NCBI RefSeq assembly: GCF_055900595.2
Contig: NZ_CM148325.1
Length of the DNA stretch: 64,000 bases
Direction: 5' to 3' (one strand)
Every line of letters starts with the position of its first letter. Within the stretch, counting starts at the first letter, position 1. This document shows positions 1,021-50,867 of the stretch, piece by piece. The notes below the pieces were generated by a model, which was given only the letters and a program-made list of their open reading frames with translations, was not told where the DNA came from and did not search any database. The position numbers and the translations under genes are program-made.

Positions 1021-1353
1021 ATGGCTAAAATCTGAATCAGCGTAAAAAAAGGAATGTTGATTTTTGCTATCGCCTGACAGACAGAAAACAAAAACCACAT
1101 CGCCGATAAGGGACTAAGTCAACCATTTCAGACTAAAGCGCATCTCTTTTTCCCCATTTCCGGCATCGACTCACCACAAAGGTCACAAAATCTGGTAAAC
1201 TATCATCCAATTTTCTGCCCAAATGTCGGGTATTGCTCATTTTTTGTTTGATTTTCGAACAAAGAGAGTCGTTCCTTACTGGGTAACACAACTTCTGACT
1301 GGCCACCTGGTGGCTGGTAGCAGTAAAAATTCTGACTATACCTGGAGGTTTTC

Positions 1354-1992
1354 ATGGCTGTCGCTGCCAACAAACGTTCGGTAATGACGCTGTTTTCCGG
1401 TCCTACTGACATCTATAGCCATCAGGTCCGCATTGTGCTGGCTGAGAAAGGTGTAAGTTTCGAGATCGAACACGTGGAAAAGGACAATCCGCCTCAGGAT
1501 CTGATTGACCTCAACCCGAATCAGAGCGTTCCGACCCTGGTGGATCGTGAGCTGACCCTGTGGGAATCTCGCATCATTATGGAATATCTGGATGAGCGTT
1601 TCCCGCATCCGCCACTGATGCCTGTTTACCCGGTAGCTCGCGGTGAAAGCCGTCTGTACATGCATCGCATCGAAAAAGACTGGTACACGCTGATGAACAC
1701 CATCATCAACGGTTCAGCTTCTGAAGCAGATGCCGCACGTAAGCAACTGCGCGAAGAACTGCTGGCGATTGCGCCGGTCTTCGGTCAGAAGCCGTACTTC
1801 CTGAGCGATGAGTTCAGCCTGGTCGATTGCTACCTTGCTCCGCTGCTGTGGCGTCTGCCGCAACTGGGCATCGAGTTCAGCGGCCCGGGTGCGAAAGAGC
1901 TGAAAGGCTATATGACCCGCGTCTTTGAACGTGACTCTTTCCTTGCTTCTTTAACTGAAGCTGAACGTGAAATGCGTCTGGGCCGGAGTTAA
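1354..1992 (+). CDS. sspA: stringent starvation protein A (GST-fold RNAP-associated protein)
   Basis: 212-aa ORF MAVAANKRSVMTLFSGPTDIYSHQVRIVLAEKGV...; recognised SspA, followed 5 bp later by sspB. Confidence 0.93.
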   Translation: MAVAANKRSVMTLFSGPTDIYSHQVRIVLAEKGVSFEIEHVEKDNPPQDLIDLNPNQSVPTLVDRELTLWESRIIMEYLDERFPHPPLMPVYPVARGESRLYMHRIEKDWYTLMNTIINGSASEADAARKQLREELLAIAPVFGQKPYFLSDEFSLVDCYLAPLLWRLPQLGIEFSGPGAKELKGYMTRVFERDSFLASLTEAEREMRLGRS

Positions 1993-1997
1993 TCTGT

Positions 1998-2495
1998 ATG
2001 GATTTGTCACAGCTAACACCACGTCGTCCCTATCTGCTGCGTGCATTCTATGAGTGGTTGCTGGATAACCAGCTCACGCCGCACCTGGTGGTGGATGTGA
2101 CGCTCCCTGGCGTGCAGGTTCCTATGGAATATGCGCGTGACGGGCAAATCGTACTCAACATTGCGCCGCGTGCTGTCGGCAATCTGGAACTGGCGAATGA
2201 TGAGGTGCGCTTTAACGCGCGCTTTGGTGGCATTCCGCGTCAGGTTTCTGTGCCGCTGGCTGCCGTGCTGGCTATCTACGCCCGTGAAAATGGCGCAGGC
2301 ACGATGTTTGAACCTGAAGCTGCCTACGATGAAGATGCCAGCATCATGAATGATGAAGAGGCATCGGCAGACAACGAAACCGTTATGTCGGTTATTGATG
2401 GCGACAAGCCAGATCACGATGATGACACTCATCCTGACGATGAACCACCGCAGCCACCACGCGGTGGTCGACCGGCATTACGCGTTGTGAAGTAA
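1998..2495 (+). CDS. sspB: ClpXP specificity-enhancing adaptor SspB
   Basis: 165-aa ORF MDLSQLTPRRPYLLRAFYEWLLDNQLTPHLVVD... with acidic C-terminal tail; recognised SspB. Confidence 0.93.
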   Translation: MDLSQLTPRRPYLLRAFYEWLLDNQLTPHLVVDVTLPGVQVPMEYARDGQIVLNIAPRAVGNLELANDEVRFNARFGGIPRQVSVPLAAVLAIYARENGAGTMFEPEAAYDEDASIMNDEEASADNETVMSVIDGDKPDHDDDTHPDDEPPQPPRGGRPALRVVK

Positions 2496-2499
2496 AATG

Positions 2500-2527
2500 A
2501 AAACAGGCCCTGGCGGCCTGTTTTGTC
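2500..2527. terminator. Bidirectional hairpin terminator between convergent sspB and dcuD
   Basis: aacaggccctggcggcctgtttt hairpin with flanking A/T runs between the two stop codons. Confidence 0.6.
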
Positions 2528-2538
2528 TTCTTTATCGC

Positions 2539-3906
2539 TTAATAAAATAGCGTGATTGTGGCAATCATATTCACCACGAAACCGACTGCCATGGGGATCG
2601 CTGTCCGCTTCACCACTGCAAAAGGCGAAACACCTGCAATTCCTGATGTAACGACCACCACCGCAGTAATCGGCGAAACAGCGCGCGCTAGCGTCGTGGC
2701 AAAATGCATCGGCATAATCATTACAACCGCAGGTACATGTAGTCCGGCTGCGATATTCGGAATAAGACTGGCAAATGACATAAATGGCGCATTGCCTGAG
2801 CCCATCACAATGGCACAAATGGCAATGACCAGCGCCATAATAATCATCACGCCAATACCGCCCAGACCAGAATGCTCCGCACCCCTGATAACCGCATCGA
2901 CAGTGCCAATTGTCGTTAAGCCCTTCGCAAATATTTCACCCGCGACCACCAGCGTTACCACGTTGGCAAACTGCGTACCCATGCCGTCAAAAAACGCCTG
3001 CACATCGTCCATTGTTTCGCGCAAATTATGCTTGCGGAAAAACTCAACAAACATCGTCACCGTCAAACTCAGTAACATCACCACCACCAGATGCAGTTCT
3101 GACTGCATCAGTCCAGCGTGGGCGAGGAACAGCGAGCCGAGCATCAGGATTAACGGCATCACCGGTAAAATGGCGTAATAAAGCGGTGGGACATTATCGA
3201 GAGCTTTTTGCTCCGCCTGCTCGTGATTGATATTTTTATCTTTTTTGTCAAAAGCGCGTTGCACGAAAAAGTGAGAGATCGCTACCGAGATAATGACGCA
3301 AGAGGCGACCGGAAGCTGGTAGTGGAAGAAGTAAGTGGCAATTTTCATTCCTGCCACCTGGGCCGCAAAAATAGAGTTCGTTTCCAGAATCCCCCACTCA
3401 ATGGACATCGTGGTTGCGATAACTGCCACCGCAGAGAGTCGACTTACTCCCAGACTCACCAGTGTCGGAAATAAGGTGACCATCAGCAACATACCCAGAC
3501 CGGAGGCGCTGGTAATAAACTGCGCCATGATTTGGCCGATGACGTAAGTTGCCGACAGAATAATATACGGCGAGCGAATGAGTTTTAACGGGCGGCTTAA
3601 CAAGCTCACCATCGCCCGACTGGCTCCTATGCGCTCCATGTAGCGGGCATACCCGCCCACCGCCATAATCGACAACCCTAACCCGGCAATGCGGTTGGAC
3701 AGCATGCGCAGGATTTCATTATAAATATCGACGATCAAGTAGCCGCTGCTTTGGGTGGGATCGAGTACTCCACCGAACCCTAACCAGACACCGCACATCA
3801 TCAGGAAGATACCTGCGGCAGCCAGCACCACTTGAGGTTTGTAGTTTTTCAGGATCAAATAGCCCATCGTCATTAATACGATGACAGATATAATTATGCC
3901 GAACAT
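2539..3906 (-). CDS. dcuD: C4-dicarboxylate transporter DcuD (DcuC family)
   Basis: ORF 2539..3924 minus; polytopic membrane protein; start trimmed to [11 protein letters not shown]... (455 aa) from recall of the DcuD N-terminus; position between sspB and nanR matches E. coli. Confidence 0.85.
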
Positions 3907-4284
3907 TGTTGAACTCCGTGTCAAAAGAAAACGGTCAATCCCATAAACGGCAGATTGAAAACAGTGATGTTATATTTTTTGCAAGGCTATTTATGGTGTT
4001 GGTGTCGTATTTTTTAATTCTGGATGAGGCAATTTTTCATTATAAAATATGCATTTATGATTATTTTGTAAGAACATATTCGTAATATTCATAATGCTTG
4101 TGAATAGTCTTATGAATAATTCATTCAGGATGTTTTATCGGCGTTACACTAATTTTCGCAATAGTTAATTATTACGTTAATTATGATAATAATGAGACAC
4201 AAAGAGAAAAAACCGCCATTTCCCCCTACTTTCAATCCTGTGATAGGATGTCACTGATGATGTTAATCACACTGACCTTACAGA

Positions 4285-5076
4285 ATGGGCCTTATGAACG
4301 CATTTGATTCGCAAACCGAAGATTCTTCACCTGCAATTGGTCGCAACTTGCGTAGCCGCCCGCTGGCGCGTAAGAAACTCTCCGAAATGGTGGAAGAAGA
4401 GCTGGAACAGATGATCCGCCGCCGTGAATTTGGCGAAGGTGAACAATTACCGTCTGAACGCGAACTGATGGCGTTCTTTAACGTCGGGCGTCCTTCTGTG
4501 CGCGAAGCGCTGGCAGCGTTAAAACGCAAAGGTCTGGTGCAAATAAACAACGGCGAACGTGCCCGCGTCTCGCGTCCTTCAGCGGACACCATCATCGGCG
4601 AGCTTTCCGGCATGGCGAAAGATTTCCTTTCTCATCCTGGCGGAATTGCCCATTTCGAACAATTACGTCTGTTCTTTGAATCCAGCCTGGTGCGCTATGC
4701 GGCTGAACACGCCACCGATGAGCAAATCGATTTGCTGGCAAAAGCACTGGAAATCAACAGTCAGTCGCTTGATAACAACGCGGCATTCATTCGTTCAGAC
4801 GTTGATTTCCACCGCGTGCTGGCGGAGATCCCCGGTAACCCAATCTTCATGGCGATCCATGTTGCCCTGCTCGATTGGCTGATCGCCGCGCGCCCAACGG
4901 TAGCTGATCAGGCTCTGCATGAGCATAACAACGTTAGCTATCAACAGCATATTGCGATCGTTGACGCGATCCGTCGTCATGATCCTGACGAAGCCGATCG
5001 CGCGTTGCAATCGCATCTCAACAGCGTCTCTGCTACCTGGCACGCCTTCGGTCAGACCACCAACAAAAAGAAATAA
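4285..5076 (+). CDS. nanR: GntR/FadR-family transcriptional repressor NanR
   Basis: 263-aa ORF with N-terminal winged-HTH region (…[54 protein letters not shown]…); lies immediately upstream of the Nan operator and nan operon. Confidence 0.9.
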
Positions 5077-5139
5077 TGCCACTTTAGTGAAGCAGATCGC
5101 ATTATAAGCTTTCTGTATGGGGTGTTGCTTAATTGATCT

Positions 5140-5162
5140 GGTATAACAGGTATAAAGGTATA
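5140..5162. promoter_or_regulatory. NanR operator (three direct GGTATA repeats) within the nanA promoter region
   Basis: ggtataacaggtataaaggtata read directly; matches the established Nan box. A GATC Dam site lies just upstream (aattgatctgg). Confidence 0.7.
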
Positions 5163-5176
5163 TCGTTTATCAGACA

Positions 5177-5185
5177 AGCATCACT
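5177..5185. repeat. Left copy of the 9-bp target-site duplication (AGCATCACT) flanking IS10
   Basis: Identical 9-mer agcatcact occurs immediately outside both IS10 termini (5177..5185 and 6515..6523). Confidence 0.9.
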
Positions 5186-5230
5186 CTGATGAATCCCCTA
5201 ATGATTTTGGTAAAAATCATTAAGTTAAGG

Positions 5231-5300
5231 TGGATACACATCTTGTCATATGATCAAATGGTTTCGCCAAAAATCAATAATCAGACAACAAAATGTGCGA
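5231..5300 (-). ncRNA. IS10 RNA-OUT antisense RNA (pOUT transcript), placed from recalled element coordinates
   Basis: Established IS10 architecture: pOUT transcript of about 69 nt starts near element bp 115 and runs toward the outside end, pairing with the 5' end of the transposase mRNA. Coordinates are inferred from element position, not from a visible signal. Confidence 0.4.
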
Positions 5301-6501
5301 ACTCGATATTTTACACGACTCTCTTTACCAATTCTGCCCCGAATTACACTTAAAACGACTCAACAGCTTAACGTTGGCTTGCCACGCCTTACTTGACTGT
5401 AAAACTCTCACTCTTACCGAACTTGGCCGTAACCTGCCAACCAAAGCGAGAACAAAACATAACATCAAACGAATCGACCGATTGTTAGGTAATCGTCACC
5501 TCCACAAAGAGCGACTCGCTGTATACCGTTGGCATGCTAGCTTTATCTGTTCGGGCAATACGATGCCCATTGTACTTGTTGACTGGTCTGATATCCGTGA
5601 GCAAAAACGGCTTATGGTATTGCGAGCTTCAGTCGCACTACACGGTCGTTCTGTTACTCTTTATGAGAAAGCGTTCCCGCTTTCAGAGCAATGTTCAAAG
5701 AAAGCTCATGACCAATTTCTAGCCGACCTTGCGAGCATTCTACCGAGTAACACCACACCGCTCATTGTCAGTGATGCTGGCTTTAAAGTGCCATGGTATA
5801 AATCCGTTGAGAAGCTGGGTTGGTACTGGTTAAGTCGAGTAAGAGGAAAAGTACAATATGCAGACCTAGGAGCGGAAAACTGGAAACCTATCAGCAACTT
5901 ACATGATATGTCATCTAGTCACTCAAAGACTTTAGGCTATAAGAGGCTGACTAAAAGCAATCCAATCTCATGCCAAATTCTATTGTATAAATCTCGCTCT
6001 AAAGGCCGAAAAAATCAGCGCTCGACACGGACTCATTGTCACCACCCGTCACCTAAAATCTACTCAGCGTCGGCAAAGGAGCCATGGATTCTAGCAACTA
6101 ACTTACCTGTTGAAATTCGAACACCCAAACAACTTGTTAATATCTATTCGAAGCGAATGCAGATTGAAGAAACCTTCCGAGACTTGAAAAGTCCTGCCTA
6201 CGGACTAGGCCTACGCCATAGCCGAACGAGCAGCTCAGAGCGTTTTGATATCATGCTGCTAATCGCCCTGATGCTTCAACTAACATGTTGGCTTGCGGGC
6301 GTTCATGCTCAGAAACAAGGTTGGGACAAGCACTTCCAGGCTAACACAGTCAGAAATCGAAACGTACTCTCAACAGTTCGCTTAGGCATGGAAGTTTTGC
6401 GGCATTCTGGCTACACAATAACAAGGGAAGACTCACTCGTGGCTGCAACCCTGCTTACTCAAAATCTATTCACACATGGTTACGTTTTGGGGAAATTATG
6501 A
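5293..6501 (+). CDS. IS10 transposase (DDE, IS4 family), apparently intact
   Basis: Uninterrupted 402-aa [67 protein letters not shown]...; recognised as Tn10/IS10 transposase. Confidence 0.95.
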
Positions 6502-6514
6502 GGGGATCTCTCAG

Positions 6515-6523
6515 AGCATCACT
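6515..6523. repeat. Right copy of the 9-bp target-site duplication (AGCATCACT) flanking IS10
   Basis: agcatcact immediately after the IS10 inside end; identical to 5177..5185. Confidence 0.9.
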
Positions 6524-6535
6524 TCAGAGGTATTT

Positions 6536-7429
6536 ATGGCAACGAATTTACGTGGCGTAATGGCCGCACTCCTGACTCCTTTTGATCAACAACAAGCACT
6601 GGATAAAGCGAGTCTGCGTCGCCTGGTTCAGTTCAATATTCAGCAGGGCATCGACGGTTTATACGTGGGTGGTTCTACCGGCGAAGCCTTTGTACAAAGC
6701 CTTTCCGAGCGTGAACAGGTACTGGAAATCGTCGCCGAAGAGGCGAAAGGCAAGATTAAACTCATCGCCCACGTCGGTTGCGTCAGCACTGCTGAAAGCC
6801 AACAACTTGCGGCATCGGCTAAACGTTATGGCTTCGATGCCGTCTCCGCTGTCACGCCGTTCTACTATCCTTTCAGCTTTGAAGAACACTGCGATCACTA
6901 TCGGGCAATTATTGATTCGGCGGATGGTTTGCCGATGGTGGTGTACAACATTCCGGCGTTAAGCGGCGTTAAACTGACCCTGGATCAGATTAACACTCTG
7001 GTTAAGTTGCCTGGTGTCGGCGCGCTGAAACAGACCTCTGGCGATCTCTATCAGATGGAGCAGATCCGTCGTGAACATCCGGATCTGGTGCTCTATAACG
7101 GTTACGACGAAATCTTTGCTTCTGGTTTGTTGGCGGGCGCTGATGGTGGTATCGGCAGTACTTACAACATCATGGGCTGGCGTTATCAGGGTATCGTGAA
7201 GGCGCTGAAAGAAGGCGATATCCAGACCGCGCAGAAGCTGCAAACCGAATGTAATAAAGTCATTGATTTACTGATCAAAACGGGCGTATTCCGCGGCCTG
7301 AAAACGGTCCTGCACTATATGGATGTCGTTTCTGTGCCGCTGTGCCGCAAACCGTTTGGTCCGGTCGATGAAAAATATCTGCCAGAACTGAAGGCGCTAG
7401 CCCAGCAGTTGATGCAAGAGCGCGGGTGA
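6536..7429 (+). CDS. nanA: N-acetylneuraminate lyase
   Basis: ORF 6476..7429 trimmed to [20 protein letters not shown]... (297 aa), preceded by SD gagg; DHDPS-family lyase; first gene of the nan operon. Confidence 0.92.
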
Positions 7430-22395: not shown

Positions 22396-22507
22396 CCCCG
22401 GCTAGACCGGGGTGCGCGAATACTGCGCCAACACCAGGGAAATCTTGGCTGCGCCGTAAATTTTTATGATGAGTTACAAGGGCACAGCACTTTTTTTCAG
22501 GCCGCAC
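22386..22507 (-). ncRNA. arcZ: ArcZ small RNA (Hfq-dependent), convergent with arcB
   Basis: Reverse complement reads gtgcggcctgaaaaa...gtgctgtgcccttgtaactcatcat...ggcgcagccaagatttccctggtgttggcgcagtattcgcgcaccccggtctagccggggtcattttttt, matching the recalled ArcZ sequence and its terminator overlapping the arcB 3' end. Confidence 0.65.
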
Positions 22508-43976: not shown

Positions 43977-44223
43977 AATCTCGCGCTAACAACCTGGAAT
44001 CGAGCCGTCATACTACGGCGCAACGCCCTATAAAGTAAACGATGACCCTGCGGGAACTTCAGGGTAAAATGACTATCAAAATGTGAATTGCAGCTGACCT
44101 GGGACTTGTACCCGGGTCGGTATTTTTTTGCTTCTGGTCCCGGTGAGGAGTTATGCCGGGCAGGCCGAACAGCCGGGGTGGGTGAAGACTTGCCCCATCA
44201 GGAATATTCAAGAGGTATAACAA

Positions 44224-50780: not shown

Positions 50781-50867
50781 GCCGAGGTGGTGGAATTGGT
50801 AGACACGCTACCTTGAGGTGGTAGTGCCCAATAGGGCTTACGGGTTCAAGTCCCGTCCTCGGTACCA
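50781..50867 (+). tRNA. leuU: tRNA-Leu (anticodon GAG)
   Basis: 87-nt sequence gccgaggtggtggaattggtagacacgctaccttgaggtggtag...ggttcaagtcccgtcctcggtacca with long variable arm and CCA end; 14 bp after secG; followed by a hairpin/T-run terminator (50880..50905). Confidence 0.9.

Follow-up and report, generated by a model that had tools for sequence, protein, structure and literature searches.

We conclude with high confidence that an intact IS10 transposed alone into the leader of the sialic-acid operon nanATEK-nanQ of an E. coli strain, and that a strongly polar loss or reduction of function in sialic-acid catabolism is the most likely outcome. The event would have been a standard cut-and-paste transposition of a single IS10 into this leader, with duplication of the 9-bp target AGCATCACT, and sialic-acid catabolism is predicted to be impaired or deregulated in the isolate but not in its clonal relatives. 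Insertion at this site has no precedent in the collections that we searched, though events of this kind are routine. As a whole, the finding falls within known biology, IS10 being a textbook element with matches in roughly one in three complete E. coli genomes.

A single intact IS10 between nanR and nanA

The element lies on the plus strand at positions 5186..6514 of the window (the whole 64-kb stretch of DNA analysed here) and, read directly from the sequence, spans 1329 bp with its outside end on the left and its inside end on the right. It opens with the IS10 outside end, CTGATGAATCCCCTAATGA, and terminates in the reverse complement of the inside end, CTGAGAGATCCCCTCATAA. The 23-bp terminal inverted repeats, likewise read directly, occupy 5186..5208 (+) at the outside end and 6492..6514 (-) at the inside end, the latter including a GATC at 6505-6508, and the terminal 23 bp at either end are the same as in the two copies carried by plasmid R100. 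Between them, the transposase gene at 5293..6501 (+) is an intact, uninterrupted open reading frame of 402 aa of the DDE_Tnp_1 type, and PF01609 (DDE_Tnp_1) is on record for this exact protein.

The full known set of IS10 control elements is present, namely pIN with its Dam site, RNA-OUT and the Dam site of the inside end. Specifically, the element has just two GATC, at 5252 (element nt 67-70) and at 6505 (nt 1320); the first of these sites (5252-5255) overlaps the -10 region of pIN, and the sites have a described Dam regulatory role (PMC5006887). The gene for the antisense RNA-OUT at 5231..5300 (-) matches the Rfam model RF00240 over its full length (1-70) with 97.3 bits, against a gathering threshold of 41. 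In its length and ends, its near-identity to the reference copies, its 402-aa DDE reading frame, its 9-bp target-site duplication, its RNA-OUT and its Dam sites, the element is IS10 (IS4 family), in one intact copy. A preliminary description of this DNA had made the same identification, with which the termini, the length of 1329 bp and the identities of 99.7% and 99.2% to the R100 copies all agree; its claims of an uninterrupted 402-aa transposase, of two Dam GATC sites and of a location between nanR and nanA are equally borne out.

To the left of the element, nanR is intact at 4285..5076 (+), recognized by its reading frame and annotated as nanR at the matching position in relatives. It is followed by the NanR operator at 5140..5162 (+), with three GGTATA repeats (5140-5145, 5149-5154 and 5157-5162; operator as defined in PMC8012715 and PMC3658417). 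To the right, nanA, the first gene of nanATEK-nanQ, is intact at 6536..7429 (+) according to its reading frame, its sequence and the annotation of E200086, a clonal relative. IS10 begins 23 bp downstream of the operator, and the ATG of nanA at 6536 lies 21 bp past the inside end, with the Shine-Dalgarno sequence AGAGG (6526-6530) kept. Since the operator is located downstream of the RNA polymerase site (PMC8012715), IS10 sits within the transcribed leader, parting nanATEK-nanQ from its promoter and operator.

Two identical copies of AGCATCACT bracket the element, at 5177..5185 and 6515..6523; the chance recurrence of a given 9-mer at that spot is about 4e-6. The target agrees with the classical hotspot NGCTNAGCN at three of the six specified positions and with the relaxed IS10 target consensus NRCNNNGYN (PMC4574204) at three of four, and its earlier characterization as a poor hotspot match is a fair one; all 13 perfect hotspot sites in the window are unused. 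An empty-site construct, in which 4677-5185 is joined to 6524-7023 with a single copy of AGCATCACT kept, gives a single ungapped alignment under annotated nanR and nanA in 5408 of the 5426 complete E. coli genomes searched; eight of the 5408, clonal relatives of the isolate, match it at 100% identity. When the window is compared with one of the eight, the human stool isolate E200086 from Mali, the BLAST pieces flanking IS10 overlap by exactly the 9-bp target. The simple, unrearranged transposition with a 9-bp duplication that had been proposed is thus upheld both by the exactness of the duplication and by the single copy of the target recovered from the empty site of related genomes. Conversely, an occupied site, defined as a place covering 80%, was found in none of the 5426 complete E. 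coli genomes, and the left junction sequence is absent from a contig collection with one genome per species (genome_contigs) and from a collection of metagenome contigs (metagenome_contigs). With no occupied site among the 5426 genomes, the insertion is therefore recent and private to the strain, as far as the searched data reach.

Identity to the window across 24.5 kb rightward is 100.0% for these eight genomes as well, and E200086 is collinear with it from 3395 to 64000 except for IS10, with eight mismatches (SNPs) in 57.5 kb. Further left, the stretch 1303..3398 is 98.8% identical to E200086, with 25 mismatches in 2.1 kb, and resembles a small patch of recombination around sspB-dcuD. The gene for a dcuC/dcuD-type C4-dicarboxylate transporter that adjoins nanR (2539..3924, -) is intact in the window and split by an IS3-family element in E200086; members of this clone therefore have private IS insertions around nanR. 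The RNA elements of the window present nothing unusual: the Rfam families found are those expected for E. coli (ArcZ at 22400..22507, the greA leader at 44007..44128, the rimP leader at 54636..54736, naRNA4 at 59435..59505, the S15 leader at 61017..61131 and SraG at 61360..61531), alongside two tRNAs at 50781 and 54471.

Other origins of the element can be envisioned. The copy might belong to a larger composite transposon as one of its arms, or to an IS10-mediated rearrangement, with its partner beyond the window, a scenario favoured by the visible sequence being only 64 kb long and by the median of two IS10 places, and up to 45, in genomes that bear the element. We give it hardly any credence, as the 9-bp duplication brackets this single copy, whereas a composite would have its duplication at the outer ends only, as the two flanks adjoin each other in the empty site and as the collinearity with E200086 is broken by IS10 alone. 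BLAST of the element finds no second IS10 in the 64-kb window, and BLAST of the Tn10 interior of R100 (jemA to tetD) finds none of its tet and jem genes there; the structure of a composite Tn10, two inverted IS10 around tetR/tetA/tetC/tetD and jemABC, is absent from the window, in line with the designation of this copy as a solo IS10 in the preliminary description. Within the window, a composite transposon can be ruled out, and the duplication around a single copy makes it unlikely elsewhere. Very improbable, too, is a laboratory origin, by a jump from a cloning host (DH10B, JM109 or XL1-Blue, with Tn10-derived IS10) into a clone while a library was being made, or by misassembly. Hops of IS10 from laboratory hosts into cloned DNA are documented (PMC4574204), but these hosts carry the IS10R and IS10L derived from Tn10 (PMC11148124), from which the window copy differs by 11 and 4, respectively; moreover, it is identical to chromosomal copies of the wild isolates 55989 and AF56, and its junctions and duplication are exact.

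Allelic make-up and mobility of the element

Our reference copies were both IS10 of Tn10 in plasmid R100 (NC_002134, 36132-45278). The copy adjoining tetD we take to be IS10-Right, as it matches the published IS10-Right sequence and tetD is the known neighbour of IS10-Right; the copy adjoining the glutamate symporter gene (jemA/gltS) was taken as IS10-Left. These two differ from each other at 15 positions, at four of which the window copy is R-type (nt 24, 25, 27 and 47) and at 11 L-type (nt 83, 107, 410, 425, 903, 1249, 1268, 1271, 1272, 1281 and 1300). At no position does it depart from both R100 copies, and after nt 1300 it equals both.

Set against IS10-Right, the window copy is identical at 1318 of 1329 positions (99.2%), without indels and with 11 nucleotide differences. 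The two have nt 1-82 in common, a segment with the outside-end repeat, the pIN region and the Dam site of that region, and share the length of 1329 bp, the inside end with its Dam site, RNA-OUT, the 9-bp duplication and a 402-aa DDE transposase, whereas four residues of that transposase are changed (I266 for V, S381 for L, T389 for A and V398 for A). Set against IS10-Left, it is identical at 1325 of 1329 positions (99.7%), again without indels; the four differences lie near the outside end, nt 48-1329 are the same and the transposase protein is identical (WP_001352368.1), but the window copy is a solo element outside Tn10. Alignment to IS10R and IS10L, which the preliminary description had proposed as the way to decide on the allele, gives a mixed answer, in that the copy is neither canonical allele. 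On the pattern of its diagnostic sites, it is a natural allelic mosaic, the first 47 nt of which match Right and the remainder, with the whole transposase, Left.

IS10A, a distant relative (68% nucleotide and 70% amino-acid identity), agrees with IS10-Right at each of the four amino-acid differences and also at most of the 3' diagnostic sites. Given this agreement at four of four residues, the protein encoded in the window carries derived changes, and by this polarisation the L-type body and the window transposase are derived states. The window copy matches one or the other Tn10 copy at each diagnostic site, which had prompted the idea that its allele might be the common ancestor of IS10L and IS10R; the polarisation by IS10A led us to reject it. 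A reciprocal mosaic IS10 occurs in the Salmonella Schwarzengrund plasmid NZ_CP130110.1 (28966-30294), in which nt 24-47 are of the Left type and most of the other diagnostic sites of the Right type. Every pairing of an L- or R-type end with an L- or R-type body, four in all, exists, and IS10 variants have therefore recombined.

Two of the differences from IS10-Right, at nt 83 and nt 107, fall in the overlap of RNA-IN and RNA-OUT. The change at nt 107 puts a G-U in place of a G-C pair in the stem of RNA-OUT, and that at nt 83 lies in the loop region, where the pairing with transposase mRNA begins, at the 5' end of that message.

IS10 is common among the genomes searched, with matches in 1967 of the 5426 complete E. 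coli genomes (36%). In 1173 genomes, 80% or more of the element is covered by one place; among IS10-bearing genomes the median is two places and the maximum 45. Of the 1248 records in which the 3' end is present, 685 are matched best by its Left-type form; for the first 120 nt, the window type gives the best match in no more than 277 of 2292 records. The exact 1329-bp sequence was found in only two other genomes among the 5426, those of E. coli 55989, where it lies between dkgB and yafC with the target-site duplication GATTAAGCC, and of the blood isolate AF56, where it lies inside cdgI with the duplication AACAAAGTG. These chromosomal IS10 of wild E. coli are 100% identical to the window copy over 1329 bp and differ from it in insertion site alone. 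Such chromosomal copies are labelled by NCBI as 'IS4-like element ISVsa5 family transposase'.

The window insertion is missing from the eight clonal relatives, and the identical allele occupies two other sites with target-site duplications of their own. Found at three unrelated sites, each perfectly duplicated, the allele shows itself to be evidently mobile, by its own or another copy's transposase, and the label 'apparently active' that the preliminary description had given to the window copy seems reasonable in this light, if by indirect evidence. IS10-Left transposase has been described as inactive or weak (PMC11148124), and because the window transposase is the IS10-Left protein, the copy's own activity may be low and its jump could have been catalysed by another copy in the genome. 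Pure L-type solo copies with perfect target-site duplications occur at seven further sites, five of them in one genome that also carries Tn10, and such solo copies with duplications qualify the statement on IS10-Left inactivity (PMC11148124). The genome in question, E. coli CP024273.1, contains Tn10 and five solo IS10-Left-type copies, each with a perfect 9-bp duplication, and three of these copies split genes (for an SbmA/BacA-type ABC transporter, a UPF0257 protein and a DUF898 protein).

The searches also returned a 36-37-nt fragment with full identity to nt 1-37 of the IS10 outside end in many plasmids of E. coli, Klebsiella and Shigella. Where annotated, the hits fall on a ParB-type partition gene, and the fragment appears to be a widespread IS10 remnant.

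Transcription across the nan leader

The outside end of the element faces the nan promoter, and pOUT, the promoter of RNA-OUT, therefore reads leftward, toward nanR and away from nanA. The nan promoter is induced by sialic acid up to 1000-fold (PMC3658417), and its transcripts would have to run through 1.3 kb of IS10, in its sense direction, before reaching nanA. In the read-through RNA 5163-5330, the predicted fold buries the AUG of the transposase in a hairpin (-33.8 kcal/mol, z = -2.9). Fold-back protection of this kind against read-through is known for IS10. With its start codon hidden by the fold-back hairpin, the transposase frame would be poorly translated in read-through RNA, and the long poorly translated stretch would have a polar effect on nanATEK-nanQ. 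Rho-dependent polarity is to be expected from a poorly translated stretch of about 1.2 kb. As to termination within the element itself, there is no terminator-like site at its 3' end, and one weak internal hairpin lies at 5553-5568. Left of the element, the flanking TTTATCAG (5166..5173) is a 7/8 inverted match to the IS10 terminal CTGATGAA (5186..5193), and the two pair in the predicted read-through RNA.

A different outcome would be that nanATEK is expressed at a low level and independently of NanR from IS10 promoters, by read-through from pIN or from the inside end, or that it remains inducible by sialic acid through read-through of the element. We regard such rewired expression as possible but improbable. 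In its favour, nanA keeps its Shine-Dalgarno sequence and ATG, 21 bp from the inside end, and the terminator-like site that would stop read-through near the 3' end of the element was not found. A relaxed promoter scan yielded one weak candidate only, near the inside end, an outward promoter-like motif at 6469..6499 (+) with TTCACA followed after 17 nt by GAAATT or after 19 nt by AATTAT, which may be the promoter 'pIII' named by Simons et al. 1983. According to PMC4574204, promoter activity has been reported for either end of IS10. Within the element, an ATG at 6476 is also in frame with nanA, which would speak for the same outcome but is probably coincidental; the reading frame that it opens, 6476..7429 (+), crosses the inside end and the target duplication in a frame other than that of the transposase end and would add 20 codons to NanA. 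On the other side, a stricter consensus scan finds no promoter above threshold in 5000-6700, although it also misses the known pIN and pOUT and is thus uninformative here. Moreover, pOUT, the sole well-documented outward promoter, points away from nanA; the outside end is the one that faces the gene in documented activations; and a poorly translated stretch of 1.2 kb would be expected to be polar.

It is more doubtful still that the insertion is adaptive. Two versions of this idea can be formulated. Under the first, nanATEK is freed from control by NanR and sialic acid, the result being either lost catabolism or low constitutive expression from inside IS10. Under the second, the transcription or mobility of IS10 has become sugar-responsive behind the nan promoter, such that a host-derived sugar, acting on a promoter inducible up to 1000-fold, drives transcription into IS10 and possibly its mobility. 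A strongly polar insertion that abolishes or reduces sialic-acid catabolism remains our preferred reading.

Significance and comparison with known insertions

The importance of this insertion beyond the strain that carries it is small. Mutants in nanA and nanT are disadvantaged in the mouse gut (as cited in PMC5155068), and sialic-acid catabolism is a trait that bears on gut colonisation. At the level of the element, the L-type IS10 body is evidently mobilisable in nature, with solo copies and fresh duplications at many sites.

In the published cases in which IS10 activates a gene, pOUT is directed at that gene, as for otsBA (PMC2744996) and for cat in pSU vectors (PMC4574204). The insertion described here is like these in that the element entered a leader, tens of bp before the start codon, at a target that is not a hotspot. 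By sharp contrast, in those activations it is the outside end, with pOUT, that faces the gene, whereas here nanA is faced by the inside end.
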